DNA of 64,000 nucleotides from Octopus vulgaris. Lineage: Eukaryota. Positions 1,894 to 60,859 of this stretch are shown here, piece by piece. The notes below the pieces were generated by a model, which saw only the letters and a list, made by a program, of their open reading frames with translations, searched no databases and had not been told where the DNA came from. The stretch's first letter is position 1. Every line of letters starts with the position of its first letter. Location of the stretch: assembly GCA_951406725.2 (NCBI GenBank), contig OX597827.1, forward strand, positions 6,138,001-6,202,000. Direction: 5' to 3'. The position numbers and the translations under genes are program-made.

Positions 1894-2175
1894 CAGCGAT
1901 GCCCAATCTTTGCTTCTGTATCATTTCAGATGTGTATCCTGCTGTAGAGTTGTAAGGTAACTGCTGCTGCTCTGTGCTGGCAGGTTTATGTAGCATGATC
2001 TGTTGTTGGCTGAGGAGTAGGAATGGTTGAGTAAGTGAGAGAGAGAGAGAGAGAGAGAGAAAGAGTGAAGGAGAAACTGAGAGTGACAGAGTAAGACAGA
2101 CAGATAAAGAACGACAACAGAGGATGAGGGAACTGGGATATGAAAGAATGAAAGAGAGAGTTTGGTAGTTTCACT
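1894..2175 (-). other. Probable first exon of the next minus-strand gene (5'UTR plus ATG-led 34-codon frame MLHKPASTEQQQLPYNSTAGYTSEMIQKQRLGIA)
   Basis: Begins at an Inr-like TCAGT (A at 2175), includes a (CT)n tract, has an ATG at 1996 open to the donor CTG|GTAAAT at 1894/1893 (phase 1). Confidence 0.5.
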
Positions 2176-23243: not shown

Positions 23244-23350
23244 ACCTCAGCCCATATGTGCTACTATATATATATATATATATATATATTTATTTATTTT
23301 ATAGAAGGAGCTTCTATAGACTAGAACTGTTTCATTCAAATGAAATCTTC

Positions 23351-23393
23351 CTGAAGATTTCATTTGAATGAAACAGTTCTAGTCCTGTAGAAG
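23351..23393 (+). ncRNA. Hammerhead-like core missing the 5' strand of stem I, at the centre of a 120-bp palindrome
   Basis: CTGAAGA-TTTCATTTGAAT-GAAAC-AGTTCTA-GTC. The sequence 5' of the core is an inverted copy of the downstream part. Confidence 0.5.
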
Positions 23394-24553
23394 CTCCTTC
23401 TATAAAATAAATTAATTTACTCTGCTATGTATTGAGTACCTTATTTACTGTGGTTAACCCCGACTCAACCCGGAACCTACATGTATATATATATATATAT
23501 ATACACATACACATATATATATACATATATATACATGAATGTGTATGTGTGTTTGTGGCAGTGTTTGTAGCCCCTATCATGTGACAAATGGTGTTGGTTT
23601 GTTTACATCCCTGTACCTTAGCAGTTCAGAAAAAGAAACATGGCTATAGTCCAGTATGGCTGCAGTCTAATGAGTGAAACAAATAAAAGATAAAAGATAT
23701 AGTTATAAGTATGAAAATTATCCTTTTTAAGTTTTAAGGATTTGACAGAAAAACTTAGCATTTTGAGGAACATTTGATATAGCCATGGGCAAACTGCTGC
23801 TTGTAGGACTTTCTGGATTTCACAACAAACGAAATATTACCTCAAATCCCTCTTCAGTAGAGCAGCCTCCTTGATGATGAGCTGGTTCCATGTGGCCCAC
23901 TTCTTAATAAAGGTTGACCATACCTGATAAAATTCTTATCTTCAATAATCAACTTATGTTCAAGTTTTGGTTATTGTTGTTGTTGTTGGCGTTATTATTC
24001 TTTTTTATTTAACCTCTGGTCAACCTTGTTCAAGAAGGTCTGTGATCAAAGGTAATTTAGGTCCAAGAGTACCACATTTCAATAGGTGTGTCTTGGATTG
24101 TAATTTCTAGCATGTTATATGAAAACGGTAAGTACTATAAGTAAGATTTCAAGGAAGATTTGACTGCTGCTTCAAGCACATCAAGCAAAACATAATTTTT
24201 GGACTTTAAGTTATGTGGACCTGGTATGCTATAAAAATAGCAAAAATAAAAATAAAATGCTAAGACAAATAATTTAATTTTGAGATTTTTGAGGTGCTTG
24301 TTAGGTTGCCTCGCATGGATTATATAGATTATAGACTAAGGTTATAGAGAGGAACGGTAATGAAAGTAATATGTTTATTATTAGAAGAAGACAAAAAACA
24401 TTATTCCTAAGAATGTAAGTAAATCGGCAGGATATCTTCACTCTAATATAAAGATAACGAAGGTGATATTCAGTGAGTAATACGCTACTCACTGTACACT
24501 AATTACTGTATTCAAAACAGAGCAGTATATCATGCTAGGATAACAAATAATAA

Positions 24554-26271: not shown

Positions 26272-26600
26272 CTATTTTAAAGGAACTTTAGCATATTTCT
26301 CAGAAGATGGTACTTTTAAAGAGTTCCATGGATATGGTAATGCTGGTAATGGCTTTGAATAAGACGTAAAACTATTCCTCATGGGCAAATTCCAAGATTG
26401 TGAAGCAGTCTTTGGGTCTGTATTATTTACTCTATATGATTTCAGGTCAATGACATCATTGTGTGAAGATGGATTCTGAATAGCTTCAGTTTGGTTCGAT
26501 AGTTTTGCATGAGAAATGGTGTCTTTATATCTACTAATTGCCAATGGTAGAGACAGTTTGGCTGAGCTTTGGAATTCCACAGGCAAGCAGGATTTTATAC
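26272..26600 (-). CDS. Protocadherin terminal coding exon (G-IKSCLPVEFQ...WNLPMRNSFTSYSKPLPALP...KVPLK*)
   Basis: Acceptor TTGTTGTTTTGATTTCATCTTAG with a phase 1 entry that matches exon 2. Non-repetitive open frame to TAG at 26272. The WNLPMRNSF...KPLP motif resembles, from memory, the C-termini of octopus protocadherins. Confidence 0.85.
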
Positions 26601-26850
26601 CTAAGATGAAATCAAAACAACAATTATATATATTATATATTTATGTTCATTGTTTAAATAGAATAACAAAAGTAGGTTTACTGTATAAAATTATATAATA
26701 AAATTGTGACTTAAACACACCAATATTGAACATTCATTATTGTAGACATATAGGAATGCATAATAAGAGGACTTTGAGGCAGCGGCTAGCAACAAAACAT
26801 GGTATGCAAAAGTAATTATCAACTTGGACACACACGTGCACACACACACT

Positions 26851-26882
<32 letters not shown>

Positions 26883-26962
26883 TACACACATGAACTGATA
26901 ATTGCTGTTGAATGACAGAAAGTGGAAGATTTATTAACAGAAGTTAACAACATTGCACACAT

Positions 26963-27783
26963 GTGGTCTGATCAATAAGTATCCGGACTGTTGCTATAGT
27001 AACGAAGCTAAATCATGCAGAGTGAAGCCGCTTGACACAGATTGACCTTGAACTCTGCTGTGCATGAGTACTAAGTTTTAACATTCTAGCTTACTTCAAC
27101 TGTTTACATCAGTGCTTGGAAGTAACATGGTTGCAGGTAACCTGCTCAGAGGACTACGCAAAGTTTTCAAAAAGTTTTCATCGTTCTCGACAAAACCAAA
27201 GAGATCCTGTGCAACTGAAACTCGAGTGTCTTTTTGGTCCGCTGAAAGAAGTTTTGGCATAAATTTGGCAGACACGCGTCTCATACACAAATCTTCAGTG
27301 ATAATGGACTGAACTGAACTGTAACTAATCTCCACATCCTCTGATAACTCATGGATGGTGATTCGATGATTTCCCCTCACAGCTGCACACACATTTGCGA
27401 GGTTTTGCTCAGTATTGCTGGTTGCAGGCCTCCCAGAACGATCGTCACTATCGACATTTTCTCAGCAATCTTTGAAACGTCTGAGCCATTCAAACACTTA
27501 TGTGTAGCTCAAACACTCCTCTCCATACACTTTCTGCAACTTTGCATAGGCCTCTCAGCAGGTATCACCATGACAACTTTCTCTGTCATGGTCAATGCGA
27601 TGATCACACACTACACACCTTCCTTCATGGTACTGCTGTAAACAGCAGAAGTGAGCTAGAATGTTAAAATTTAGTGCACATGCACAACAGATGTCAAGGT
27701 CAATTGGTGCAAAGGGACTTCACTCTGCATTCTTTAGCTTTGTTACTATGGCAACAGTCCTGATACTTATTTATCAGACCTTG
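26963..27783 (-). mobile_element. Non-autonomous mariner with both TIRs, in the last protocadherin intron
   Basis: About 45-bp TIRs, GGTCTGATCAATAAGTATCCGGAC... and ...GTCCTGATACTTATTTATCAGACC. ORF remnant RITIHELSEDVEISYSSVQSIITEDLCMRRVSAKFMPKLL (WVP-region homologue). Confidence 0.85.
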
Positions 27784-28244
27784 TATTTATGTGTGAGTGT
27801 ATGTGCATATATGCCTTCATATATATGCATATACAACACAATATATATATATATATGTAAATATATTCTTTTATTCTTTCACAAGTTTCAGTCATTTGAC
27901 TACGGCCATGCTGGAGCACCACCTTAATTGGATTTTTTAGTCAAAGAAATCGACCCCAGGAATTATTCTTTGTGATCCTAGTACTTATTCTATTGGTCAC
28001 TTTTTACAACACCACTAAGTTATAAGGACATAAACACACCAACAGTGGCTGTCAAGTGATAGTGGGGGAACAAACATAGACACAAAGATACTCTCACATA
28101 AATATAAACATACATACATATATGCATTAAGATAAGCCTGAGGAGATGAATAATGTGGAACAATGCATCAATCTTATCAAGGAGGATATAAACAACAGTG
28201 TGCATCAATAAATCATTAAAATGACATATTGATGCACACAGTTC

Positions 28245-28350
28245 TTTATATCCTCCCTGATGAGATTGATGCATTGTTTCACATTATTCATCTTCTTGGA
28301 TTTATTTTAATGCATCTATCGAAACATATGTCGGTGGTATGGTGATATAA
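28245..28350 (+). ncRNA. Type I hammerhead ribozyme motif, canonical core
   Basis: CTGATGA at 28257-28263. Stem II GATTGATGCATTG/TAATGCATCTATC, closed by G-C. GAAAC at 28321-28325, palindromic minimal stem III (ACATATGT), GTC triplet at 28330-28332. Stem I is CC/GG plus TTATATC/GATATAA. Confidence 0.8.
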
Positions 28351-28481
28351 ACAATTTAAATAACATCTTGAGTGTTTGTCTCTATTTTCCATTATTCTTA
28401 TGTTCTCCAAAACACATCTTGCTTCTCCCAAGAATTAACTCCCATGCAAGCTTGATCACCAATTCCTAGGACATTTATGTA

Positions 28482-28529
<48 letters not shown>

Positions 28530-28686
28530 CAATAATAAATCTCTGAGTGAGGCAAATACTGATTGGGCACAGAAAGTGTGTCAATAGCCAGCTGGAAGAG
28601 GTGTCCTCCTGGGGCTACAAGCTACAGTAGCATCCACCCTTAAGGGTTAGCCACATTTAAGTGGCAAATATGCTTCATGATATATA

Positions 28687-28760
<74 letters not shown>

Positions 28761-28997
28761 CATATACATATATGTAGATAAAAAAGAGGGAGATAGAAAC
28801 GAATATTCCCTTGCAGGTTGAAAAATAGGTGCTTTAATGAAACATCTATAACTCACCTTTATATGATAAACCCTGTCAGTGGGCAAGACGAACAGAATAA
28901 TTTTTTAAAAATTACTGTGATTTAATAGTTTCAGGTTTAACTTACAAATTAAATAAATTAATTTTGAAAGAATTAATTTAATTTATATTTATGTGTG

Positions 28998-29050
<53 letters not shown>

Positions 29051-29057
29051 TTCTATA

Positions 29058-29088
<31 letters not shown>

Positions 29089-29103
29089 ATGTGTATATAT
29101 ATA

Positions 29104-29148
<45 letters not shown>

Positions 29149-29257
29149 TTATGTAAGTATGTCTTTGTTTCTACATTTGTTCCTCCAATTTCAATTGACA
29201 ACCAATGGTGATGTGTTTATGTCCATTATTCTTATATACCTATATACATACATATAT

Positions 29258-29306
<49 letters not shown>

Positions 29307-29911
29307 CATATATATATATTATACATACACACAAACATGAACACACACACACACACACACACATGTATACTGGTGTTGGTATTTCTCCTGTCATTAAAAT
29401 GTCCATATACTTTGTGTCTCCTAAGCCATGTGGAATAAGAGATCTCTTACTTGGAAAACAGGTAAGGATTAATGTCAGGAATGTCACCTAGCTGTAAAAC
29501 AATGCATTGAAGACATATTTGTCTAACACCTATGCTACCATATAAAAAAAAGGACACAAAAAAACCCAACAAATATATGTGTTGTTGTATGTTTGTGTTT
29601 CTGGGAATAATAGATCTGAAAGCACTCCTACGCATGTAAATATTACGGCTGGAAAACCTCTTTGGACAGAAAAAAGTAAAAGGCTGTCTGTAGGACTTGA
29701 AACCACCACTTTGTCATGTCTATTAAGCAACCATCAGGATTTTCTATCCAAAAGGAATTTTTAGCCCCAAATTTCCATGGTATTATTCATAATTTTCTGT
29801 GCTTCAAGACCCTCTATTCCAAAAGCAAATTATTTTACATTCTCTGAAATGTCTCTAAAATTCTTTCAGCATCAATAACATAATGTATGCCAAATAAATA
29901 CAGGCACTGTC

Positions 29912-30174
29912 TATTCCTTCTTCACTTGTTTATTACTGTTCTTATTCTAACTCATGTCCATTGTCTGGAAATCTTTCGCCAGACATCTGTGACCTCTTCA
30001 GCAAAACATTTCACCTTCGTTTGTGCTCTTGCTCTGCTTATGGAAATAGCAGAACAAGAGCACAAATGAAGGTGGAAAGTGTTGCTGAAGAGGTCACAGA
30101 TGTCTGGCGAAAGATTCCCAGACAATGGACATGAGTTAGAATAAGAACAGTAATAAACAAGTGAAGAACGAATA
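29912..30174. repeat. Inverted repeat with arms of about 125 bp, carrying a degenerate hammerhead
   Basis: Arms about 29912-30038 and 30050-30174. The right arm has GTGTTG-CTGAAGA ... CGAATATATGG-CAACAC. Confidence 0.8.
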
Positions 30175-30656
30175 TATGGCAACACAAAAAATGACCATCC
30201 CGAAATACAACAATATCTGTTTCAACACATGGTTTCACATCAAGAATCTTGCAACACAAATTCATATATATATATAGGGTGCAAGGGGTATTTGAGGACA
30301 GTTTTGGTATACAATAAAACAACAATATTTCAGCATAAATAAGTATGTATTTTGAATAAACATTTGTACACTTAATCTTGGTAAGGACTTTTTAAGCAAA
30401 TTATTCTATGAAACCACCTTTGGCTTTGATGACTGCTTCAATGCAGGACCGAAGCCACTGGCATGCTGGCACTATATGGTCCTTATTCATTTCGGACATC
30501 ACCTGGACAATTTCAGCCTTCAGTGAAACTCAGGTATTATGAGAATGACAATTAGTCTGCCTTTCAACATTACATGAATTTAAATGCAGAGTCATCCTCA
30601 GCTGCATAAATAAATAGAATTTTAACAAGTTGGACAGATTAAAATTCTATTTATTT

Positions 30657-30744
30657 GTGCAGCTGATGATAGCTCTGCATTTAAATTCATGTAATGATTG
30701 CATTGTTCAATTAAATGGAGCTGCTTGAAACGGTCGTACTGCAT
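30657..30744 (+). ncRNA. Type I hammerhead ribozyme motif, base of stem II degenerate
   Basis: Stem I GTGCAG/CTGCAT. CTGATGA at 30663-30669. Stem II TAGCTC..CATTTAA/TTAAATG.GAGCTG. GAAAC-GGTC-GTA at 30727-30738. Confidence 0.7.
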
Positions 30745-30801
30745 CACTTCTTGATATCCTGTTGCTTATTTTGATTATACACACACACACATATATATAT
30801 G

Positions 30802-30871
<70 letters not shown>

Positions 30872-32585
30872 ATATATATATATATATATATTTGTTTTTT
30901 TGTTCATTTATAATAAATGACTCTTCCCAGACATGATAAAATATGCTTCAACACACGAATTCGCATAAAGAATCTTGCAAACCAATACAAAAAAGAAATT
31001 CTAAAACAAAATATATCATTAGTGGGGTGGAAAGAAGCAAAAGAAAGGTAGATGATATAATGGAGAGATTCAGTCTGTGAGATAACTTATAGGATAGAGG
31101 TTTGCAAGTGTGTGTGCTTATGTATGTCTTTTTGTGTATGTGTGTGTGTGTATGTGTGTGTGTGTGTGTGTGTATACATGTATATCTACATGTGTTTGTG
31201 TATGTGTATATATATATAAAAAGGGTCAGAAAGTTTGTGTGAGAAATGAAATCCATTTTGAAATAAATTTATCATTTGTAAGGGTGTCTACTTTGTTGAG
31301 ATGATGGTGAGGATGATGATGATAGTGGTGTTGATGATGATGATGATGGCAATGATGATGATGGCGATGGTGATGACGACGATGATGATGAGCATCTTTG
31401 ATAATGAATACAATAAATAACAACTAAATGATTTGAATAAAACCAGAGATTTAACTGAAAGTTGCTTCATCAATAAGTTCTATCTTGGGAGAAAGAAAGA
31501 AAGAACAAACGTAAGAATAAAGAGATGAAGAAGAAGAAGAAGAAGAAGAAGAAGAAGAAGAAGAAGAAGAAGAAGAAGAAGAAGAAGAAGAAGAAGAAGA
31601 AGAAAACGGAGGAGGCGAATGAATACTTGAGACAAAGCTTTCATCTGAAGAACTGGACAGGTGTGTGGTCAAACTTCTAAGCATGGCTATATGCATGTAT
31701 GTGTGTGTGTGTGTCTGTGAGTGCAGGCATTTGTGCATGTGTGTTTGTGTATGCATGCCTGTATGCTTGCATGTGTCTGTGTGTCTGTGCCTTAGCATGT
31801 GCTTGCATGTGTGTATATTGCATGTGTATCAGAATGTGTGTGTGTTAGTGTTTTGAAAATGATGAAAGTATTTAATTGAGAAGAAAAAGGGAAGGAGAGA
31901 AAAGTGAGAGAGAAAGGGAAGGGGAGAGAGATAGAGAAAGAGAAAGGAGAGAGGAGAAAGGAGAAACAGATTGACAGAGACAAGGAGAAAAGGAGAGACG
32001 GAACAGAGAGGGACAAACAGAGAAAGAAGAATAAGAGGGGCTACAAAAGAGATTATAAGAATGTGAGAAAGAAGAAAATGAGAGAGAAGGAGCAACAGAG
32101 AGGGAGAGGGATTATGAGAGAGAAGGGTGAAAGACAAAAAGAAGAGGAAAAGAAAGAGAGAGAGAGATGGAGAGAGAGATAAGGAATGAGTAAAAGAAAA
32201 AGGAAAACAGAAAGAGTAGACATGTTAATATCTTGAAATGTTCTGTGATGAATGCCAACCAACTTTAGATCAGTATCCAAAAAGACCAAATCTCCTGACT
32301 TCAAAGGATAAATTTCTGGCACTCCTTCTATGCTAACGTCTTCTGCTAGCTGACAGCAGCTGCAATGATCGCCACCGGCAACCACGGCAGCCAGCAGGAT
32401 TTTTACTAGCTGCTGCCATGCAGAAGGTTACAACAACCATTAAAATGAAGCGAAACTCTCTATTTTCTGCTTAGAGAAGACGACAATCAGCTAATTGGTA
32501 AATTATTTGAGCATTCTGAACTTACACTTTCTGCTATTAAGAGAAAACTAATTCATTCATCTAAACAGCATACATACTTAAATAC

Positions 32586-32618
<33 letters not shown>

Positions 32619-32708
32619 TACATATGTGTGTGTGTGTGTATATATATACACACACACACACACAAATATATATATATATGTGTATTTATATGTATGTACA
32701 TATATATG

Positions 32709-32804
32709 CAGTATGGCTGATGAGTACGGGTCACTTATATTTACTGCAATATTTGCAGCCTTAATAAAGCTGTCTTCGTACGAAACAATTGTACCGAAAT
32801 ATTG
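32709..32804 (+). ncRNA. Type I hammerhead ribozyme motif, canonical core
   Basis: CTGATGA at 32717-32723. Stem II GTACGGG/TTCGTAC. GAAAC at 32782-32786, palindromic stem III ACAATTGT, GTA triplet at 32791-32793. Stem I CAGTAT-GG pairs with CC-(GAA)-ATATTG. Confidence 0.8.
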
Positions 32805-33010
32805 ATCCATTCTTGTTGCCTTTTTCTTATTTATATGCATATATATGTATGTATATATATATATGTGTGTGTATGTGTGTATATATATATATATGTATAT
32901 AATTTAAAGAAAAACTTCTATTAAGCAATTCATGTGAAATTTGATTTAGTATTGCTAAACTGAATTTTTCCCTGTAAGTTTGGACTTATATTCCCTACTA
33001 TTATTACCCT

Positions 33011-33045
<35 letters not shown>

Positions 33046-34128
33046 AGTGTAGGTGGCATATGAGTGGGTATATATTTATAAAAAGAAGTTTGAAGATGCC
33101 ACTATATAAGATAAATTTTAATTTTCTTAGAGATTTTACATGTTTTGGTTCTTCTTGAAAAACGAACCTTATCAAAAATATTTTTAAAAGTTAAGTGTAA
33201 TAAAAAAGTTCATAATTGTTTCTTACTGGTCTCAACAGAGTCCATGTGGTGGTGTTTTGTGGGGTGGGGAGCATAATGGCTGTCTTGTGCATTGACCAGA
33301 TTCATTGGCTGTAATTGTGAAAATGATAGCAGCTGCAATAGCTTCCAGCTGACCAATTCAAATTTATCTTATATAGTGGTGTTTTCAAACTTCTTTTATA
33401 TATAGAATATATATAAGTATGATGATGATGGCTGTCCGCTTGTGACTAAGGAAGACCACTGCTGATCTTTAGGAACATTGTGTGCTCTAGGACTAACTTA
33501 CATTTTGCATTTGTAGTTCCGTTGATGGCTAATAAGCCCTGCTCTTGATAAGCATATACGACTGCAAACATTGCAAACCAAGCTTCCCCCATTCACCACT
33601 CTAGTAGTGCACTTTCAAGAAGCACACTTAAATTCTTCATGAAGAATAAGTGCTTTTACTAGGCATCGACCCACTCCTTAACCTGCTTCCTCCATCTGTG
33701 GTGATGACAGGCATTGCTCTCCCGGTCAATATCCTGCATATCACAGGCCTTTAATGAGGACTTGACACAGTCCTTAAATTGCAGCCTTGGTTTCTGCTGG
33801 GGTCTCTTTACACACACACACACACATAATATACATGTGGCTTGCTTCCCAACAACATGATTCTGAGTTCAGTCCCACTGTGTGGCACTTTGAACAAGGG
33901 TCTTCTACTATTGCTTCCAGCTGACCAATGCCTTGTGAGTGGATTTGATAGACAAAAACTGAAAGAAGCCCATTGTATATTTATACATATGTATATACCT
34001 ATGTGTGTGTATCTTTGTGTCTGTGTTAGTCTCCTCTTCACTGCTTGACAACTGGTGTTAATTTGTTTACATCCCCATAACTTAGCAGTTCAGCAAAAAG
34101 GACCAATAGAATAAGTACTAGGCCCTAC

Positions 34129-34260
34129 TGTGGCCCTACTGGAGCACTGCTTTGAAGGATTTTAATTAAAAAAATTGACTCCAGGACTTATTTTAAAATA
34201 AGTCCTGGAGTCAATTTTTTTAATTAAAATCCTTCAAAGCAGTGCTCCAGTAGGGCCACA
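34129..34260. repeat. Perfect 132-bp palindrome inside a SINE A copy
   Basis: Exact reverse-complement symmetry about 34194|34195. Confidence 0.9.
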
Positions 34261-35433
34261 GTTGAATAACTGAAACAAGTAAAAGAATAAAAGGATAAAA
34301 GAATGTATGTGTGTGTGTTTGTGTGTATTTGTGTTTGTCCTCTGCCACCACTGCTTGACAACCGGTGCTGGTGTGTTTATGTCCCTGTAACATAGTGGTT
34401 TGGCAAAAGAGACCAATAGAATAAGTTGTTATGTGGTACTACTTTCAGTTAATATACAAAAGCTAACAAAGATTTAATGATGCTTGTGACGAAGCTTGAT
34501 CCCTTGCTAGACAGAGTAAAATTGCTTGTGGGTTAGAAAGCTTAGTTGATGGAAAGCTTTCATGACTTTAAAAGAATACAAACCTAATTATAGTAAGAGA
34601 CCCATTGGTAGAGTTTTAAACTCAGTGAGGACTGGAGCAAGTTAAGTAATCAGGAAAAAAAGAAAGTAATCATGAAATATTAACACAAAGGCACCCTGGT
34701 GTCATACAAATGGTACCTGTACCGGTGGCATGGTAAAAGCACCCATTCCACTCTCAGAGTGGTTGGCATTAGGAAGGGCACCCAGCCATAGAAAATCATG
34801 CCAAATCAGACTGGAGTCTGGTCCAACCCATGCCAGTATGGACAAAGGACGCTAAATGATGATGATGAGAATAAGGGGCCTGCTAAACTGCAGCAATGGG
34901 CTATAGCAGCACTGCTACAGATTGATTTAGGACTATAAAGATGAGTATAGAGCTTGATTGACACAATTTGACAATGTAGAATTTTAAACCTCATTATTGA
35001 GATCTTTACTGGCTAAGACAAATGGGTTAAAGATATGTCAATATTGACCATATAAACCTTCACCTTATCATGCATGTATGAAAATCCTTCAATTCCACGA
35101 AGGTCCATCAGGCACCTATTTGGCGCTAAATTTTGAAACCGGAACCAAGCTGACCAACATTTACTTGTTCTGACCCAGTAGAGGTAGGACATTATTATTG
35201 TTCACTGATATTTTTTCCTATCATGTCAGTAATAGATTTGTGTCTATTTAGTGGTACAGAAATATTTTTCGACTTCTATTTTTTAGCGATATAGGTACTC
35301 ATATGTATATATGTATATATGTGTATATATGTATATATCTAATATTGTATGTATATATTTTATTAATTTGCCTGTACGGCTGATAATTTGCTTATCACTT
35401 GTGATGGTATTCTAATAATATCATCCCTATATT

Positions 35434-35472
<39 letters not shown>

Positions 35473-36080
35473 CATACACACACTCACACACACACACACA
35501 CACATGCACAAACACACACACAGAGGCTTCTTTCAGTTTCGGTTTACCAAATCCACTCACAAGACTTTTGTCATTCCAAAGATATAGTAGAAGTCAATTG
35601 CTCAAGTTTCCACACTGTGGGACTGAACCCTGAACCATGTAGTTGGAAAGCAAGATTCCTACCACACAGCTGCACCTGTGCCTAAATTCGACAACAGATG
35701 AATTCTCTCTTTCTCTCTGTCTGTCTCCGACTAAGGTGCAGATTATTTATCGTTCATATACGTAAAGTATAATATTGCATAGTGGTAGCAAAATGTAGGA
35801 ACTGGATGCAAAGTATGTATTAAGGCTTTCAAAGAAATAATGTGAACATGCTTATACTATATGTGTAATGTTTGTGTACTTGAATGACGGAGGACGAATG
35901 CAGAGAGAAAAACTAAAATGGGGAATAAGAGGAATTAAAATTCATATATAGAGTGCAGCAGAAATAACTCAATTTCCATAGCTATTCCAATACAGAATTG
36001 TATATCTACTTTGTGGTTCCATTATTTTTCAAGCATTTAGACCAAACTTAGCTGTAAGCATATTTAAACATCTCTCTCTG

Positions 36081-36125
<45 letters not shown>

Positions 36126-36156
36126 GTGTATATATATATATAATTATAAATATATA

Positions 36157-36249
<93 letters not shown>

Positions 36250-36329
36250 CATATATATATACATGTAATTATATATATACATATATATATATATATATGT
36301 ATATATATAATTATATATATATATATATG

Positions 36330-36388
<59 letters not shown>

Positions 36389-37084
36389 CATATATATACA
36401 TGTATATATATACACGCACGTATATGAATGCATGCACACGCATATATGAATATATGTATGATATATATATATATTTATATACATATATAAAAAGCTATAA
36501 TGCATATCTGATATAGACTACAGCCGTGAGTTGTAGTTTATTTAATTTTATTTTATTTTAAATCATGTTTCTTGCAAACAGTAGCAACATTGATTTTAGA
36601 TTCTCATTGAGCCAATCACAGGTTCACTACATTTTCACTGGGTAGAGGGATAAGTGAGTGTCTCTGTAAATCAGACAGAATTAATACCACTAGGTATTTT
36701 TGTTTGCAAGCTTTGGTTTATAGGCAATCCTTTCACTGACACGTATGTACAAGTATACATATATATATACACATACATATACATACACATATATGTCTAT
36801 ATATGTGTGTGTGTGTGTGTATATCTTTATATACGCACAAGCATTCACTTAAAACACTGACACATATTAGAAGATGATATTTATAGCCTATGCCCAGACA
36901 TGCGTATGCACATGTATATATTTAGCTCATAGAATCATACCAATGTGCATACATACACATATATGTTGTACTCACACACACATAAGCATTGAAGTAAGAG
37001 GTATAGCATCACATTTACATCCATGCACACATACACACATATACGTATATATGTGTGTATATGTTTGTATGTATGTGTATGTGG

Positions 37085-37156
<72 letters not shown>

Positions 37157-39269
37157 GTATATGTATTTGTATATGTATATGTATATGTATATTTATTTAT
37201 TTGTATGAAGCAATCAATACAGAAACAAATAGCTTGGCTCAATATATATTGACAAGCTCATACATATATGCATATTCATGCATATATCATCGTCCGAGAC
37301 AGAGGTCCACTGACACAAGTGTCTATGGGCAGTGCCAATGAAAATATACCAAATAAGAGTTCAGCTGCAGTCTATGGATCATTTATACTGTAACTTTAGT
37401 GCCAAAACTATTTCTGGATCTGTGTTAATGGATATGGATGTCGAAGTGAGATATAGTTATTTTCAGTAAGAAATCATTTCATAGATGTTTCGTAGCCAAG
37501 AAAATGATGGCAATTTAATCAATTTGATATTTGCAAAGCTAAAAAAACAAATAATAATAATAATAAAAAAGCCAGAATTCTGAAATAGCAATTTTCTTGG
37601 TTTCTGGCCGTTGCTATTCTAATTCTAATCATTACCATGATTGTTGTCATTAGTCATCATCATCGTTGTTTAAGCCATTGTTACGATCATCATCATCACC
37701 ATCACCATCAGGATTCTCATTGTTCATGTTGTTGTCGCCATCGTCATCATCATCATCATTGTTGTTATCATTGTCGCTATTACCACCACCACCATCGTCA
37801 TCATCATTAATACCTTCATCACCATTATTGTTATCTTTATCCTGGTCATCCACCCCATCGTCATCATCATCATCATCATCGTCATCATCATCATCTTAAT
37901 CACCTTCATCATCATCATCACTGTCATTGTCATTATTGACATCGTGCTCATTGCTGTTGTTGTTGTCTTCCTCCTCTGCCTCCTTGTTTCATCATCATCA
38001 CCATCATCACTACCATAATCAAAGTCCAGGAGAATTCAAGGCAATGAAGGCCACTCAATCTCTGAGTAAAAGTAGCCAAATTTCCTCCATATAACACCTG
38101 GCAGGCTTTATTTACAGAAACAACACATTAGTTAACATAGTGCTAATTATCTCTAAATTGACTTTGTATACCTCCGATCATTTGTCTTTACTCTTTTACT
38201 CTTTTACTTGTTTCAGTCATTTGACTGCGGCCATGCTGGAGCACCGCCTTTAGTCGAGCAAATCGACCCCGGGACTTATTCTTTGTAAGCCCAGTACTTA
38301 TTCTATCGGTCACTTTTGCCGAACCGCTAAGTGACGGGGATGTAAACACACCAGCATCGGTTGTCAAGCAATGCTAGGGGGACAAACACAAACACACACA
38401 CACATACATATATATTTATACATATATATACGACAGGCTTCTTTCAGTTTCCGTCTACCAAATCCACTCACAAGGCATTGGTCGGCCCGGGGCTATAGCA
38501 GAAGACACTTGCCCAAGGTGCCACGCAGTGGGACTGAACCTGGAACCATGTGGTTGGTAAGCAAGCTACTTACCACACAGCCACTCCTGCGCCTATGTCT
38601 GTTCATAAGTTGGTCAGATATTGTCAGGTGGAATAAACAGAAATAACATTAGTATTACTATATGTCCTGCACCTGTTGGGCAGTGTGGTTTCTTCTTGCA
38701 GCATTGTAACAAATTGAAGTGTCTCCTGGGTGGATTGTTGGTCCTCTGCAGAAAAGTCAGATGATGGGGCTGAAATTTTAGCAGTGATAGAAAGCACTGG
38801 TGGACCTGGTCAGCTCTATGCCTTATGTGTCTCTGGGACATATGGGACATATGGGATGACCTGGGATGACCTGAGATCCATCAAGCAAGAGCATGAAGAA
38901 AGCCTGTACCTGTTATGTCTTTTGCCATTATTGCCTGAATTACTAAAATTAAAATAATGAGCACTTTTGCAATCAGTTCTATTACTTTTATTCCTAAGGT
39001 GGAGGTGTTGTTGTCAGTCATGTTTGTTTGTTTCTTTGTCTGTGGACAAGATACCTCAAGAACTGCTGGATGAAGTGGTGAAGCACAACCTTCGAACATT
39101 AAGCCTCACCACAGAAATGACTAGCGACCGAGGCTTTTGGAAATATATGCTGTGCTCGAGAAGACCCGGCAAGCTAGATGAGACCATAACCTGTGGCCTA
39201 TGCCAGGAGCATAACCAGCCCGCTTATGCGTACCTTTTCCTTCTTTGATCACTAAACTCTGCTTGCAAA

Positions 39270-39746
39270 GACCTGTTGAGGCAAGTGAAATCAAAATCAA
39301 AATCAAAATCAATTCGATGACTGGCATCCGTGCTAGTGGGGTACAAAGAGCACCATACGGGTGTGATCTTGACAGAGTGGCTATTCGAGTATGATCGTTG
39401 CCAGAGCAGCCAACTGGCTTCTGTACCCGTGGCATGTAAAAGGGCGCCATTGGAGCATGATCGTTACCAACATCACTTCACTGGCACCTGTGCCGGTGGC
39501 ATGTGTAAAAAGATTTGAGCAAGGTCATTGCCAGTACCGCCTGACTAGCCCCTGTGCCAGTGGCACGTAAAAAGCACCCACTACACTCTCGGGGTGGTTG
39601 GCGTTAGAAAGGGCATCCAACTGTAGAAACTCTGCCAGATCAATATTGGAGCCTGGTGCAGCCATCTGGTTTGCCAGCCCTCAGTCAAAAATCGTCCAAC
39701 CCACGCTAGCATGGAAAGCGGAGGTTAAACGCTGATGATGATGATG
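39270..39746 (+). mobile_element. Retroposon family D with an (ATG)n tail
   Basis: AAAAGCACCCACTACACTC...GGGCATCCA.CTGTAGAAAC...GTTAAACG.TGATGATG. Reverse copies at 17455-17705, 18797-19012 and 47508-47712. Partial copies at about 14010-14135, 34715-34868 and 52675-52780. Confidence 0.75.
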
Positions 39747-40551
39747 TGTGTGTATGTGTGTGTGTTTGTTTGTATGTATGTTGTGTATCTGTGAATCTGT
39801 GTAAATGCATACTACATCTGTGTTTAAATTGATGTCAGCTGGGCAGTGTTTACATTTGTGATACAAAGATTAGGGATAAACAACATCTTACTTTAAAAAC
39901 AGAGGATGGTGTCAGAAGGGGTATCTGGCCTTAAGAATGTTCACCCCAAAATGGGATGATGATGATGATGATGATGATAATGATCATGATGACCGTGATG
40001 ATGGTCATAATGATTATGATATTAAGGAGAATGTGGATGATGACAATGTTGATGATGATGATGACAATGATCATGATACTCTATTTTAGAGAGAAATATT
40101 TCCTTAACAAAATACTAATTTTTGTTTTTGTTTTCTCTTTTCTTTTCTTTATTTCCAGGTGAATATATATACATTTTCTATCAGCAGAATAAACAAATTT
40201 TTTCCTTTTTTTGGGGGGGATGGGGAGTTGTTTTTGCTTGGTTTGTTTTCCAACATTACCAGTAGAGAGCCTGAGAATGCAGAATTATTCCCTGAATGGA
40301 GAGCACACTTTATCTTATATATGTTAATCAAGAAATCAAAAGCAGAGGAATGGAACAGTGGTAGCGTTATTCCAAGGCCCTTGTTAGTCAGTCTAGTGAG
40401 TTCTACGCAGAACAACTCTGTCTTACTGAACAATGAACAGCATTAAATACCTACACTAGCATAAGTAATTTGGTAGGAAAAGTATCCACAATAACAACAT
40501 GTCTGGCTACAAATAATGAAAACCTAGACAGAAACTCTGTCTGTGTCTCTG

Positions 40552-40595
<44 letters not shown>

Positions 40596-43131
40596 TATTT
40601 CTTTCTTTCTTTCTTTCTCTTGTTTCATTTTGTTAAAAGCAACAATGAAATCTTCCTTTAACAAAATGTCTGCATCACAGTCGTAATAATTGAATGAGTT
40701 TTAATAACTAAAATAATTAGCTTAACGTGATTATAAGACTAATTTATCACACAACCAGTATACTAAGTTTAAATGTAAATTGGTTGCGTAGGTGCTATTT
40801 TGGATTTCATGGTAAATAGTCGGGTTGTTGTTGTTGTTGTTGTTGTTGTTTTTGTTCAGCCTCAGGCCTGTTGTGATTGAAGAGACCAACGATCAAAGAC
40901 AATCCAGGCTTGACCACCAGCTGACAGATGAAGTCTACTGTCTACTAAATAAAAACAAGAATGACCCTGCACCTGACAAGCTTCTACACTATTTCCATCT
41001 ACCAAATTTCAATCTCTAGATTCTGGTTGACTCACGGTGGTAGTACAAGACATCTTGGAGGGCAATTTTAGTCCTGACTAAATTATTAACTTTATAAAGA
41101 AAGAGCATCATTTGAGGGTATTTTTCTGCTAAATTTAGAGGTTTGAGAAACCACAGTAGATGTTATTTTGTTATCTCATGATAACCTGGTTGTTTTACAA
41201 AATATCAAAGGTCTTTCCTGAGCTGGGTTCATAAAGCTGGTTCCTTCTGATTCTGTGGCATATATATTCCCCCACTGGACAGGATGCTGCTCCATTGCAG
41301 AATTACTTATTTTTGTCAGCTGAGTGAACTGGAGTAACAAAAAAATGAAGTGTTTTGCTCAAAAACGCCATGCATCAATTAGTCACACTATCTTTTATTT
41401 ACTAATGCAACACCTGTCCATTAAGCCACACCTGAACATTAAGCAACACCTCTCTCTCATTTACTCATTTACTTGTTTCAGTCATTCGACTGTGGCCATG
41501 CTGGAGCACCGCCTTTAGTCAAGCAAATCGACCTCAGGACTTATTCTTTGTAAGCCTAGTACTTATTCTATTGGTCTGTTTTGCCGAACCGCTAAGTTAC
41601 GGGGACGTAAACACACCAGCATTGGTTGTCAAGCGATGTTGTGGGGACAAACACAGACACACAAACATACACGCACATACATATATATACATATATACGA
41701 CAGGCTTCTTTCAGTTTCCGTCTACCAAATCCACTCACAAGGCTTTGGTCGGCCCGAAGCTATAGTAGAAGACACTTGCCCAAGATGCCACGCAGTGGGA
41801 CTGAACCCGGCACCATGTGGTTGGTAAACAAGCTACTTACCACACAGCCACTCCTGCGCCTATTTGGTTGTTTTTTAGCCTGCAATTAATTCATTCTGGT
41901 TTAAAACCATGCTGGATTAGTAAAATATAAATCAACATACTCAGACACTTAATCAAAGCATTGCTGACTATTTGCTTCAGTAATGTGTTTGTAGAAGTGA
42001 CTTGGCCAAGTGGATACGATGCTGGGCTACCATCTTATGCAACTGGTGTTCAAATCTATTGCTAGCATTTCATGGATAATTTTCAAGTTTTTTTATCTTT
42101 TGCTTGTTTCGGTCATTAGTTTTCAGTTATGCTTGGATATATTTTTATTGTTTGATCAAAGGAAGTAGAGTAAAAAACCCCAAGCATTTACCAGGCCTCC
42201 AAGATTACAAAGAGAAGAAAAAGTTTTCATATGACTGTAGACCTGACTTCAGTGCTTACAACAGAGTTAGTTCTACTGAAAGCATCTAATACCAAGTGGT
42301 GGTATTAAACAAAGAATAAGTCTGCCGCCCAAAAACAAGAATGATGCCACTGACAAACTTCAACATAGTTTCCATCTGCTAAATTTCACTAACAGTCTTC
42401 TGGTAGACCTAGTGTCATACTAGAAGAAAATTGCCAAAAGTACTCTTAATAAGATCAAAATTAAAATTTCTCTTAATCACAGAAATCTTGACTTCAGAAT
42501 GGGGTCGAGATTTCTGTGTTTGTTTAGTTTTATGAGTCTCAATTCATTTACCTATAGACTTAATTGAGCATTTTGTTTACAGTAGTTTTTTTCTTTCATC
42601 TAATTAACAACAAGAACTAATTACATATATATATATGACATATTTGGTCACCTACTTTCTCAAACAAAGAGTTCTCAACCTTTTTTTTTTACCTACAAAC
42701 TCCTTTGATTCCTATTTTACTCAGGTGGACTCTCATAGTCATTTGGGGTTTAAAAAATCTTCTTATATTTTCATAATTAAATATTATCAATGACTGTATA
42801 AAAAAATTGTTGAAATATTTTGTGTATTACTCTTTTACTTGTTTCAGTCATGTGACTGTGGCCATGCTGGAGCACCACCTTTAGTCGAGCAAATCGACTC
42901 CAGCACTTATTCTTTGTAAGCTTAGTACTTATTCTATCAGTCTCTTTTGCCAAATCTCTAAGTTACTGGGACGTAAACACACCAATATCAGTTGTCAAGC
43001 GATGTTGTGGGGACAAACACAAACACATAAACATATACACACACATACATATATATATATGTATTTTTCACTATGGGCTCCGTGTGAGCAGTCATCTAAA
43101 AGTTTTTTGTGCATCTTGATGTTGACATAAG

Positions 43132-43230
43132 TTCCTTGCTTTTCCTGATGAAAAAGCGGCATAATGTACTCCTTATTCCTTCGCAATTAGGAATATGCAG
43201 CCTTCGAAATATATGTCGAAAATAAAGGAA
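43132..43230 (+). ncRNA. Type I hammerhead ribozyme motif, partly decayed
   Basis: Stem I TTTTC/GAAAA extended by TTCCTT/AAGGAA. CTGATGA at 43145-43151. Imperfect stem II AAAAGCGGCATA/TATGCAGCCTTC. GAAAT-ATAT-GTC at 43206-43217. Confidence 0.7.
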
Positions 43231-43280
43231 TTTTGTTAATTCATCGTTCAACTCCATTCTTTCATATATTTATATTTTTA

Positions 43281-43315
<35 letters not shown>

Positions 43316-46117
43316 GACGGGCTTCTTTCAGTTTCCATCTACTTAATCTGCTCACAAGGCTTTGGTCGGCCCGAGGCTATAGTAGAAGACACTTGCCCAA
43401 GGTGCCATGCAGTGGAACTGCAGAAGTATAACCAGTTTATTGTACATAAATTTTTACAACAAAATCTTAGATGGACCACCTTGCAAGGGTCATCTTGACC
43501 CTGGTTAAGAACAACTGATCTAAAGCAAAATGCACAACCTACTATTTACTCTTTTACTCTTTTACTTGTTTCAGTCATTTGACTGCGGCCATGCTGGAGC
43601 ACCACCTTTTAGTACTTATTCTATCGGTCTCTTTTTGCCGAACCGCTAAGTGACGGGGACCTAAACACACCAGCATCGGTTGTCCAGCAATGCTAGGGGG
43701 ACAAACACAGACACACAAACACACGCATACATACATATATACATATATACGACAGGCTTCTTTCAGTTTCCGTCTACCAAATCCACTCACAAGGCATTGG
43801 TCGGCCCGGGGCTATAGCAGAAGACAGTTGCCCAAGATGCCACGCAGTGGGACTGAACCCGCAACCGTGTGGTTGGTTAGCAAGCTACTTACCACACAGC
43901 CACTCCTGCGCCTATTGTGATTTTTTTGTTTTAAATTGATGAATTACAAAAGATTCTTGATGTTGAGCAGCCAATTTTTGTTTTTGCTAGTGATTCTGAA
44001 CTATAAATACTATCATTTTTGCATAGCATATAAGACATGTATTTTTTTCTCCAAAAATGATCTCAAAAATTAAACTCCATGCCCTTCATGTAAAGTTGGA
44101 CCTACATTACATACTTTAATGCACAAGAAAATATTTCTCCTGAATGTATGCGCAGCTGAATTTTGAAGTGCATCTAATATGCCTGTGTATCTCTTATGCC
44201 ATCAAACACAGTATTTTATCTACTTTGTTTTATGTGTTGTGGTGTGTAATAATTGTGTGATCAAAATAAAAGAATTGAATTGAAACGCTATAATTTTACC
44301 AGATTACAACAATCCAACAATAACAATGACCAAAATAAAATAGTAACCATAGCAACAGTGACAAGAGCAACAACAGAAAGATGAAAAGCAGAATCTGTAA
44401 AGGAATGGCCATAGGAACAAGATTTAATAAAAGCTAGCAAAGCCAAAAGAAATAATTGCCAAGGAAGAAACACCGCAAGCTAAAAATAGCAAAAGTAACA
44501 AACCACAGAAAGAGAGAGAGCTCTACGTGGTCACCTAATCTGCTAAATATAACAACTAAACTCCTTCACAGTACATCATACTCTTTTACTCTTTTACTTG
44601 TTTCAGTCATTTGACTGCGGCCATGCTGGAGCACCGGCTTTAATCGAGCAACTCGACTCCGGGACTTATTCTTTTGTAAGCCCAGTACTTATTCTACCGG
44701 TCTCTTTTGCCGAACTGCTAAGTAACGGGGACATAAACACACCAGCATCGGTTGTCAAGCAATGCTAGGGGGGACAAACACAGACACACAAACATATACA
44801 CACACATAAATATATATATATATATACGACGGGCTTCTTTCAGTTTCCGTCTACCAAATCTGCTCACAAGGCTTTGGTCGGCCCGAGGCTATAGTAGAAG
44901 ACACTTGCCCAAAGTGCCACGCAGTGGGACTGAACTCGGAACCATGTGGTTAGTAAACAAGCTACTTACCACACAGCCACTCCTGCGCCTCCTTGATAAA
45001 AAAAAAGGAGCACATTGCATAATGTAGTCCCTAGTATAAAAATATAGGGTCGTTGCAGCTGAAGTCACATCAATTATAATTCTGTTCCTTGAGGATTGGC
45101 CTGGGGCCAAGCAACATAACAACAGTAGCAGCAACAGGAAGAACAATAATGAAAGCAATAGGGGTCCCTTACAAGAAGGCACATGTAATAACAGAAGCAA
45201 TGTCAGCGTTCTAAACTCAACAGATCTTAATACTAGCATTGTTGTCTTTACTAATATTTTCATATCACTAATAATAAATTTACTCCTTCATACAAAAGTA
45301 ACCATTTAACCATTTTGATATCAAACCATCTGAAATTTCCTTCATTCATTGTTTCCTTCCTTCAATCCTTAATTCCTTCACTCCCACTCTTCCTCCCTCC
45401 CTCCCTCCTTCCCCTCCCTTCATTTCTTCCTTCCTTCCTTCCGTCCTTCCTTCCTTCCTCCCTTCCTTCTCTTGTCTATTTTCTTTTCTCTTTCCTGTCT
45501 TTATATATATATATATTTCTTTACTACCCACAAGGGGCTACACACAGAGGGGACAAACAAGGACAGACAAATGGATTAAGTCGATTACATCGACCCCAGT
45601 GTGTAACTGGTACTTAATTTATCAACCCCGGGGGTCGAGTTGTTCGATTAAAGGCGGTGCTCCAGTATGGCCGCAGTCAAATGACTGAAACTAGTAAAAG
45701 AGTAAAAGAGTAAAAGAGTATAGTCCTAAAAGAGTTAAATAAAGAAATAACCAACCCAACTTCTTTCCTATTTTATCCCATAGAAGATCTGCAGCAATTA
45801 CTTGGTTCTTACAATAACACTATTAAAATAATTTTGAAATACAGGCCTTACTTGTATCACAGAAGCATTGCATTCCTGAAAATCCTTGCTGTAGCATGGA
45901 ATACTGTAGCATGAAACCTATTTTCTCATCCGCTTCCTTATTATGTAACAAGAAAATCAATTAGAAAATAGGTTTTCGATATGAAATTCTATGTTATGGC
46001 AAGATTCTTCAAGCAAGTAATGGTTCTATAATATGGAGTATGCTTGTAAATAAATATATTTTTGGGTGAGAAATCATAAGCTTTATTGCTATTTGCAAAC
46101 TGTTTATGAAGACATAC

Positions 46118-52982: not shown

Positions 52983-53209
52983 CTGTGAAAAGAATAACAA
53001 AAATATTCTTATCTAAGGATTCACCTCAAAAGACTTTTAAAAACTGTATTTTAACATGTGTGTATGTGTGTACAGATGTTAAAGAATGATGATTATATAT
53101 ATATATTGATAAAAATGGTAAGATAACAAAAGAAAGAAAGAGACCTCGATATTATGTAAATAGAGGAATTTATCTGTAAAAGTAATATGTAGCAATTATT
53201 CGGTAGCCA

Positions 53210-53272
53210 AGATAAAACTCTGAGTTTCGGATGCCGAGGTGGAAATCCATGCCACCATCTCTTCAGTTATCT
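53210..53272 (-). ncRNA. Type I hammerhead ribozyme motif, sense to the protocadherin pre-mRNA (intron after the large exon)
   Basis: Stem I AGATAA/TTATCT. CTGAAGA at 53266-53260. Stem II GATG...CATC(C). GAAAC at 53228-53224, stem III ACTC-A-GAGT, GTT triplet at 53218-53216. Confidence 0.65.
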
Positions 53273-57178: not shown

Positions 57179-57378
57179 GCGTGTGTGTGTTTGTGTGTCT
57201 GTGTTTGTCTCCCTAGCATTGCTTGACAACCGATGCTGGTGTGTTTATGTCCCCGTTACTTAGCGGTTCGGCAAAGGAGACCAATAGAATAAGTCCCGGG
57301 GTCGAGTTGCTCGATTAAAGGCGGTGCTCCTGCATGGCCGCAATCAAATGACTGAAACAAGTAAAATAGTAAAATAGC
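56980..57378 (+). mobile_element. SINE family A copy abutting the donor of the protocadherin large exon
   Basis: Full head-to-tail copy. Its tail ends about 10 bp from the GTAAGT donor at 57392-57387. Confidence 0.9.
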
Positions 57379-57392
57379 ATAGTATGACTTAC

Positions 57393-59810: not shown

Positions 59811-60859
59811 TTTTAATGGAAGTGACAGACAGCATCACAGTAAAATGTCTAAATGAATCCATCAACATTTAACCTGAAATTAATGAAAAATAAGATTTTA
59901 GAATTAATTATTTAAACAATTTTCAATAAACATGTCAAAATATGCAACAATAACTCAATCCAAATCTAGACTTTCATCAGAAAACTATAAAGAAAAAAGA
60001 AAAAAATAGCTGTAATTTCTATGATTTCCTTCATCAGAAAAAAAATAAATATCAAGAAAATAATTAAGAATTTCCAATAATGGTAAATTTTCATTTTTTT
60101 TTTTATAATTGAACGTTATTTTTCTTTTTAAAATTTTGAAGTCTAGAATGTTTTGAAGTTAATATATCTCTTGATGCATTTGCATCAATACCTATTGATA
60201 CATATTGTAGGATGGGCAACATGTTTGGTCATCTCTGATTTTTAAAATATTCTATAACATTAAAGATGTTGTTGATTATCTAAAAAAAATTTTAATGATT
60301 ATTTTGAGGGAGCAGCTTTTTAAGTTAGGTACAGGCTGTGAAAAAAGGGGCTACAATAGTTCTGCATTATTGTAAAACCTAAATGAATAGAATTAATATT
60401 GAATATTGAATATTTGCAGCACAGTTGCAAAACTGTAAAAGCGAAAATACTATTACTTATAGTTCAATTTAATCTATTTAGGATCTTGCTGATTCGACAA
60501 GGTGGTTGTGTGCAAAGGCAGTTCTCATTGATCACTTCCACTTAGCAATCCCTGATGCAGCTACGTGCCTCTTGACCCTACAAAAAGCTGGTGACTCCTC
60601 AATGTGTCAATGTGCCACTTCTACCTTGTCCATCCGAATGTGAGTACCCTCACTTCCACTGTCAAAAAAAAAAATAGGCGTAGGCATGACTGTGTGGCAA
60701 GAAGTTTGCTTTGCAATCATGTGGTTCCAGGTTCAGTCCCATTGTGTGGAACCTTGGGCAAGTGCCTTCTATTATATCCTTGGGAAAAAACCCAAGCTTT
60801 ATGAGTGGATTTGTTGGATGGAAACTGAAAGAAACTCATCATAAGTGTGTGTGTGTGTA

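Follow-up and report, generated by a model that had tools for sequence, protein, structure and literature searches.

A hammerhead ribozyme motif in an intron of an Octopus vulgaris protocadherin gene very probably belongs to the 5'-truncated 3' pLTR end of a Hydra-clade Penelope-like element (PLE), likely left in a TA microsatellite when reverse transcription stopped after ~120 bases and predicted to be catalytically dead. This assignment draws on features observed directly in the DNA: the match of the motif to a repeat family, the loss of the 5' strand of helix I, the RT and endonuclease sequence upstream in longer copies, the (TA)n flanks, and the antisense orientation relative to the protocadherin gene. 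The window is the whole 64-kb stretch of DNA that was analyzed, and the window copy is the repeat within it at 32715 to 32835.

The hammerhead motif in the window

A strict hammerhead descriptor matched one site in the 64-kb window and gave a match in 2 of 100 dinucleotide shuffles; the motif is more than chance. Its parts and immediate surroundings are as follows.

32582 to 32707, no strand: left TA/TG microsatellite, the insertion target (TRF)
32707 to 32714, plus strand: 5' junction bases, not colinear with the element
32715 to 32835, plus strand: 5'-truncated 3' end of the pLTR, assigned to a Hydra-clade PLE, 121 bp, short-end type (ending ...CTTATTTAT, then TA)
32715 to 32716, plus strand: GG, the remnant of the family's helix I 5' strand (TTTTTTCGG)
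32717 to 32723, plus strand: hammerhead core CTGATGA (RNA CUGAUGA), by sequence reading
32724 to 32781, plus strand: helix II, with base GTACG (32724 to 32728) and CGTAC (32777 to 32781) and a 48-nt irregular extension (32729 to 32776), by reading, folds, and compensatory changes
32744 to 32749 and 32753 to 32758, plus strand: helix II tip hairpin CTGCAA/TTGCAG (CTGCAA-TAT-TTGCAG), by sequence reading and folds
32763 to 32768, plus strand: AATAAA hexamer on the 3' arm of the helix II extension, 25 nt upstream of the cut, by sequence reading
32782 to 32793, plus strand: GAAA (32782 to 32785), helix III palindrome ACAATTGT (32785 to 32792, dimer type), and GUA site
32793, plus strand: predicted cleavage after A32793 (A17 of the GUA triplet), by sequence reading
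32794 to 32799, plus strand: helix I 3' strand CCGAAA, left without its partner TTTCGG in the window copy
32810 to 32828, plus strand: U/GU-rich tract TTCTTGTTGCCTTTTTCTT before the element's 3' end, common to sister subfamilies
32828 to 32901, no strand: right TA/TG microsatellite (TRF)

The window copy carries the complete type I hammerhead core (CUGANGA, GAAA, a UH triplet, and the G10.1-C11.1 pair). An earlier sequence-only reading had described a GUA-site hammerhead with all core residues and a G-C pair closing stem II, and this description stands. It was also right that the motif is of type I with a palindromic helix III in need of a dimer (helix III has a 2-nt loop), that microsatellite lies on both sides and, as far as position goes, that the expected site follows A32793. 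The extra hairpin that it placed in loop II is present, as the predicted tip of one long irregular helix II rather than as a branch.

Rfam reported no hammerhead at gathering score across the 64-kb window, and none at E ≤ 10 in 32400 to 33100 (701 bases), where only microsatellite-driven matches appeared; the 48-base insert in helix II is probably the cause of this miss. The free fold of 32700 to 32815 was not a hammerhead, and its stability was no better than that of shuffles (z = -0.56).

Two further sites in the window resemble hammerheads. At 53204 to 53272 on the minus strand lies a second type-I-like motif, with an AGATAA/TTATCT helix I, a CTGAAGAG core, an ACTC-A-GAGT helix III, and U at position 17. 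This motif is on the same strand as the protocadherin pre-mRNA, in the intron from 57393 to 46271, and is part of a different high-copy repeat (2,761 first-look candidates, best matches 92 to 95%). At 23300 to 23415, a near-perfect head-to-head palindrome centered on 23350 holds a hammerhead-like core (CTGAAGA...GAAAC) and adjoins a TA tract; it is likely another clipped, inverted PLE end.

Copies of the family across the genome

The exact 22-base core occurs in 92 genomic copies, compared with 0 for the reversed control, and a looser pattern retrieved 3,155 long-helix-II motifs, again compared with 0. Other copies with conserved pairing, which the sequence-only reading had expected of a real ribozyme, were thus looked for and found. 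Tandem arrays of the unit, also proposed as a search target, were not seen: counted by eye, no close same-strand pair exists among the 92 exact copies, and 40 of them form 20 opposite-strand pairs within 4 kb (19 divergent and 1 convergent). This inverted arrangement is as described for PLEs.

Among 61 copy contexts, 36 stop at the short end followed by TA, 24 continue into a ~125-bp tail, and 1 has a mutated tail; the window copy is short-ended. The 64-kb window contains no other piece of the hammerhead pLTR family and no same-family dimer partner.

Some RNA contigs covering two of the longer copies (L081:1845-1990 and L031:5700-6360) carry clusters of A>G or T>C differences across the hammerhead, as ADAR editing of inverted copies would give. 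These contigs came from guessed RNA runs and were compared with the DNA of another animal, so that strain differences are a possible source.

Structure of the family ribozyme

Structural conservation was gauged on an alignment of 22 sequences, hand-picked to cover the subfamilies and including the window copy. The core columns are invariant, and the family fold is paired in 94.8% of cells, compared with 30 to 47% in slid controls. Changes on both sides of a pair occur in 7 of 21 pairs: 2 of 5 in helix I, 2 of 5 in the helix II base, 2 of 7 in the tip hairpin, and 1 of 4 in the palindrome. The count of such pairs was not above that of shuffles (215 of 500), and the other measures are raised by relatedness, which the shuffle control ignores. 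A-T/G-C covariation preserves the palindrome of helix III, and the helix II base and tip show compensatory changes across subfamilies. At the level of the family, helices I, II, and III thus appear to be backed by covariation. Run on the same 22 sequences, RNAalifold returned the tip hairpin and an alternative GTAYGA/TTGTAC hairpin, not a hammerhead; the family structure was therefore named by the analyst and then counted. When the hammerhead was forced, the insert formed in 6 of 6 sequences a single long irregular helix with the CTGCAA/TTGCAG hairpin at its tip.

Helix II inserts of ~30 to 75 nt are also present in six unrelated hammerheads (L070:2795 and L100:2377 on the minus strand; L046:9070, L026:1177, L020:1322, and L073:1218 on the plus strand), three of which have AATAAA just past the cut site. 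Long helix II seems to be common among the hammerheads of the Octopus vulgaris genome.

The truncation junction and predicted activity

The window copy is 97.5 to 99% identical to longer copies from 32715 onward. A DNA search with the window repeat, in which the best 40 of 1,552 first-look candidates were scored, gave 46 top matches of 93 to 100% identity. All of these begin at or after query base 8 to 24, and every top match among these best 40 candidates except the self-match leaves the window's 5' flank uncovered. Since homology to the element begins at 32715, the CAGTAT strand is flank and not element. In other copies, the core is preceded by ...CAGATGTTTTTTCGG, which gives a straight TTTCGG/CCGAAA helix I. 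TTTCGG precedes the core in 80 of the 92 exact-core copies. Ten of the other 12 keep the upstream pLTR and differ by point changes or small deletions; in the last 2, the window copy and L118, the truncation falls within helix I. The junction of L118 carries an inverted piece. The junction 16-mer of the window copy has one other place in the genome, in unrelated sequence. Its TGCAGTA (32707 to 32713) is the reverse complement of the element's TACTGCA, and the flank could possibly derive from a micro-inversion, although a 7-base match could also be chance. A target-site duplication was not readable within the microsatellite around the window copy.

These observations alter how the motif should be described. 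It had been called intact, yet only GG is left of the helix I 5' strand; the supposed bulged stem I is accordingly a junction pairing with flanking DNA, its distal strand supplied by 32707 to 32714 and private to the window copy. Across the 22 family sequences, the distal pairs of that stem are formed in 43.6% of cells, compared with 92.7% for the family's straight helix I, and one distal pair occurs in only 1 of 22 sequences. A tertiary contact between the stem I bulge and loop II, suggested as a means of fast cleavage, finds no support in a bulge that is not conserved and is found in the window copy only; intact copies may make other contacts. What had looked like a solo ribozyme cassette is, in 32715 to 32835, the 5'-truncated pLTR end of a probable PLE.

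Constrained to the hammerhead fold, the window copy lies 6.9, 12.1, and 12.6 kcal/mol above the ensemble with flanks of 16, 30, and 60, compared with 1.8, 4.0, and 3.2 kcal/mol for an intact copy, L002. This contrast is a relative one, because intact family copies also fold poorly as monomers (3 to 6.5 kcal/mol at longer flanks). In the unconstrained ensemble, the helix I pair probability of the window copy is 0.000 at all three flank sizes, and a stable helix I was not found; the forced fold does form a bulged stem I of 3+5 bp. The palindrome forms a self-duplex of -6.4 kcal/mol, and helix III, with its 2-nt loop, cannot close as a monomer and needs a partner. Because one arm is lost, the window copy is predicted not to cut and is likely inactive; in the same models, weak activity with a partner in trans, via the bulged stem I of the forced fold, is possible. 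Cervera and de la Pena (2014, PMC4209133) describe single metazoan PLE hammerhead motifs that did not cleave in vitro.

An intact, stand-alone ribozyme whose bulged stem I contacts loop II for fast cleavage would fit the presence of all core bases and a bulged stem that can be drawn and that appears in the forced fold. We consider it highly improbable: that stem takes its 5' strand from flanking DNA private to this copy, its distal pairs hold in fewer than half of the cells, helix I vanishes from the unconstrained ensemble, helix III cannot close within one molecule, and the motif is antisense to the host gene.

The parent element

In longer copies, the hammerhead is preceded on the same strand by a 3' UTR and, further upstream, by RT and GIY-YIG-type endonuclease sequence. 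Five such copies (L084, L031, L036, L046, and L121) have RT (PMGS, YRDD) and/or the CxCX5C linker, endonuclease, CxxC, and CxH upstream of the hammerhead and on its strand; in L084 and L121, the last three motifs (linker, CxxC, and CxH) read CNCRIRSKC, CQLC, and CIH. A search with an RT fragment, in which the best 150 of 8,308 first-look candidates were scored, found many of them in open frames of about 980 aa. In sister subfamilies, ORFs of 842 to 1,091 aa are open and include RWK/RWR, DKT, and CxCX5C, the full ORFs carrying RWK/RWR, ADKT, PMGS, YRDD, the CxCX5C linker, Y(I/L/V)GC, CQLC, and CxH. RWK occurs in L066 and L068 and RWR in L072, and ADKT is also present in L122, a carrier of subfamily-A hammerheads. 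RT followed by a C-terminal GIY-YIG-type endonuclease in one ORF is thus the order in the sister ORFs, and the same order is seen in the broken copies of subfamily A. Among the fetched subfamily-A copies, none has an unbroken full ORF or the N-terminal RWK, and RWK/RWR is known from the sister subfamilies. A further Cys/His set (CCHH) is absent from the ORF alignment.

Pfam gave only a weak RVT_1 match (E = 0.011) and no match for the full ORFs, so the Hydra assignment rests on motifs read in alignments rather than on a tree; Hydra reference proteins from the supplement of the relevant paper were compared by eye. The Hydra-clade traits described by Craig et al. (2021, PMC8557442) include RWK, DKT, and the CxCX5C linker, and by these motifs the parent is a Hydra-clade PLE. 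A pLTR with a hammerhead, in direct or inverted arrangement, and a (TA)n target are likewise present. In L071 and L081, direct repeats in the order pLTR-ORF-pLTR span about 4.65 kb from pLTR to pLTR, with the hammerheads about 4.66 kb apart; this length is above that of Hydra elements, which are generally <3 kb as a tendency and not by definition (PMC8557442). Neptune was considered as the parent and rejected, since the CxCX5C linker and DKT match Hydra. Naiad was also rejected: the endonuclease is C-terminal and the hammerhead canonical, whereas Naiad has an N-terminal endonuclease and no canonical hammerhead.

In the ORFs of L066, L068, and L072, long low-complexity inserts rich in Asn lie between the RT thumb and the endonuclease linker; in L077 they are absent or short. 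Such inserts make the elements longer than published Hydra families. In L031, a foreign insertion of ~0.9 kb (L031:3144-4055) splits the RT thumb of a subfamily-A element.

The same evidence bears on whether the repeat might instead be the monomer of a tandem non-LTR retrozyme, that is, a noncoding, circular-RNA repeat and not part of a coding element. Molluscs are known to have retrozymes (PMC7229834), and a type I hammerhead within TA microsatellites would suit one. The upstream sequence of longer copies is nevertheless PLE 3' UTR and ORF, head-to-tail tandem noncoding units of a few hundred bases were not encountered, and the 92 exact copies include no close same-strand pair. The retrozyme reading is already largely refuted, and we give it scarcely any credence.

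The host gene

The long ORF at 57315 to 59834 on the minus strand encodes a protocadherin. Over the region searched, it matches at 100% identity a protein that bears the name of Octopus sinensis; this match clusters with O. vulgaris and O. bimaculoides entries. The relevant gene features are as follows.

About 59.8 kb to 57393, 46271 to ~46113, and ~26598 to 26272, minus strand: coding exons of the 966-aa isoform (tblastn on the window)
26598 to 46113, minus strand: host intron with approximate ends, the last coding intron of the 966-aa protocadherin isoform (tblastn of the P0124/P0125 C-termini)

Placement in the last protocadherin intron, as first proposed, is correct for the 966-aa isoform; in other isoforms, splicing leads to about 2000. 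The motif is, moreover, antisense to the gene: the hammerhead lies on the plus strand and the protocadherin on the minus strand, so the ribozyme strand is absent from the protocadherin pre-mRNA. An alternative last exon at ~1895 to 2018 (minus strand), 55 kb from the ectodomain exon, is read in two frames in different annotated isoforms.

A function co-opted by the host, such as that of an antisense terminator or RNA-structure element acting on protocadherin, could be read into the intronic location and into the AATAAA and GU-rich tract on the plus strand. The identity of 98 to 99% to dispersed copies marks a young insertion, however, and with thousands of such ends genome-wide, intronic matches are expected. 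Co-option is very unlikely.

Proposed course of insertion

The steps of insertion can be inferred from PLE biology as described for another element (PMC11167929). In the preferred reading, a truncated PLE end, the element's endonuclease would have nicked TA-rich DNA, and RT would have started from the short end of the family on an RNA still uncut by the ribozyme. Copies run on for about 40 bases beyond the cut site, which fits the report of unprocessed RNA as the insertion template (PMC11167929). cDNA synthesis would then have halted two bases into helix I, and the cDNA end would have been joined to the flank, perhaps via an inverted piece of 7 bases. A full element has a hammerhead in each of its two pLTRs, about 4.7 kb apart, and these would cut as a dimer by pairing their palindromic helices III. 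The lone window copy lacks a dimer partner and a proper helix I, and the host gene does not transcribe it in the sense direction.

AATAAA within helix II

A poly(A) signal consists of a hexamer and a downstream element. In 3,048 motifs, compared with the 3,155 long-helix motifs in all (the spacer ranges are nearly, not exactly, nested), a nearly invariant AATAAA or ATTAAA precedes the helix II 3' strand by 4 to 14 nt; it is also present in the distant L078/L079 family, where the insert is otherwise unlike. Together with the downstream GU-rich tract, AATAAA resembles, by its arrangement, a poly(A) signal superimposed on the cut site; the hexamer may equally be kept by descent and pairing.

It is conceivable, but unlikely, that the hammerhead has swallowed a poly(A) signal, such that folding would hide AAUAAA and choose at each pLTR among three fates: polyadenylation (giving mRNA), self-cleavage, and read-through (giving RT template). 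If true, the long helix II would gain a role, and a repeat found at both transcript ends could avoid premature termination. Against this idea, descent has kept many neighboring bases just as well, forced folds differ in whether the hexamer is paired or open, and genomic copies extend 60 to 70 bases past it. Among the RNA contig alignments listed for the pLTRs (24 of 48 in one set and 22 of 32 in another), none had a poly(A) end near AATAAA, which counts neither for nor against the idea, as such contigs do not show transcript ends or strand. A literature search that reached few subscription papers found no paper joining hammerhead, AAUAAA, stem II, and retrotransposon.

Comparison with known systems

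The closest likeness is to the Hydra-clade PLEs of Craig et al. (PMC8557442), including Hydra-1_Obim of Octopus bimaculoides. As described there, these share the C-terminal endonuclease, RWK, DKT, CxCX5C, CxxC, and CxH, the (TA)n targets, a type I hammerhead with palindromic helix III near the 3' end, and inverted 5'-truncated partners. Hydra-1_Obim is given as 2,507 bp with an 8-nt loop II, whereas the elements here measure about 4.7 kb from pLTR to pLTR and have Asn-rich ORF inserts; on these features, the present octopus family differs from Hydra-1_Obim. In the Hydra rows of File S2 of the same paper, loop 2 is 3 to 10 nt in 26 of 26 cases, compared with the 48-nt extension here, and two spike-moss PLE-X entries in that file have a loop 2 of about 30 to 35 nt and are marked non-canonical. 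The 48-base helix II extension is a family trait that differs from published Hydra loops, in a family that may already be catalogued.

The dimer hammerheads of PLE pLTRs (PMC4209133) are likewise of type I with a short palindromic helix III; they are reported mostly as single genomic motifs from truncated PLEs, and opposite-strand pairs 100 to 700 bp apart are a further likeness. Compared with those described there, helix II is much longer in the present family, A9 and G10.1 have no bulged base between them, and a 4-bp palindrome takes the place of a minimal helix III. The Poseidon element PAc of Anolis (Frangieh et al. 2024, PMC11167929) is reported to have the same two fixed 3' ends (short end and tail), AT-rich targets, and insertion from uncleaved RNA, as we infer here. 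PAc belongs to another clade, and its hammerhead, as described, is without helix III and overlaps the ORF start, whereas in the present family the ATG follows the cut site at a distance of ~200 nt; the tail here measures about 125 bp, compared with 30 to 40 in PAc. Animal non-LTR retrozymes (PMC7229834; bioRxiv 10.64898/2026.07.22.740005) share the type I hammerhead in a PLE-linked mobile repeat, as presented in these sources, and differ in that here there are no tandem short units and the parent is protein-coding.

Implications

The locus itself is one of thousands of clipped retrotransposon ends and of ordinary origin. It offers a caution for ribozyme scans, in that truncation junctions can create convincing but private helices. 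Hammerhead cleavage has been reported as dispensable for PLE insertion in vitro (PMC11167929). The young Hydra-clade elements of this octopus, with their open ORFs and thousands of long-helix-II hammerheads, are natural variants for testing whether the embedded AAUAAA is a regulated poly(A) signal and what role the PLE hammerhead has.
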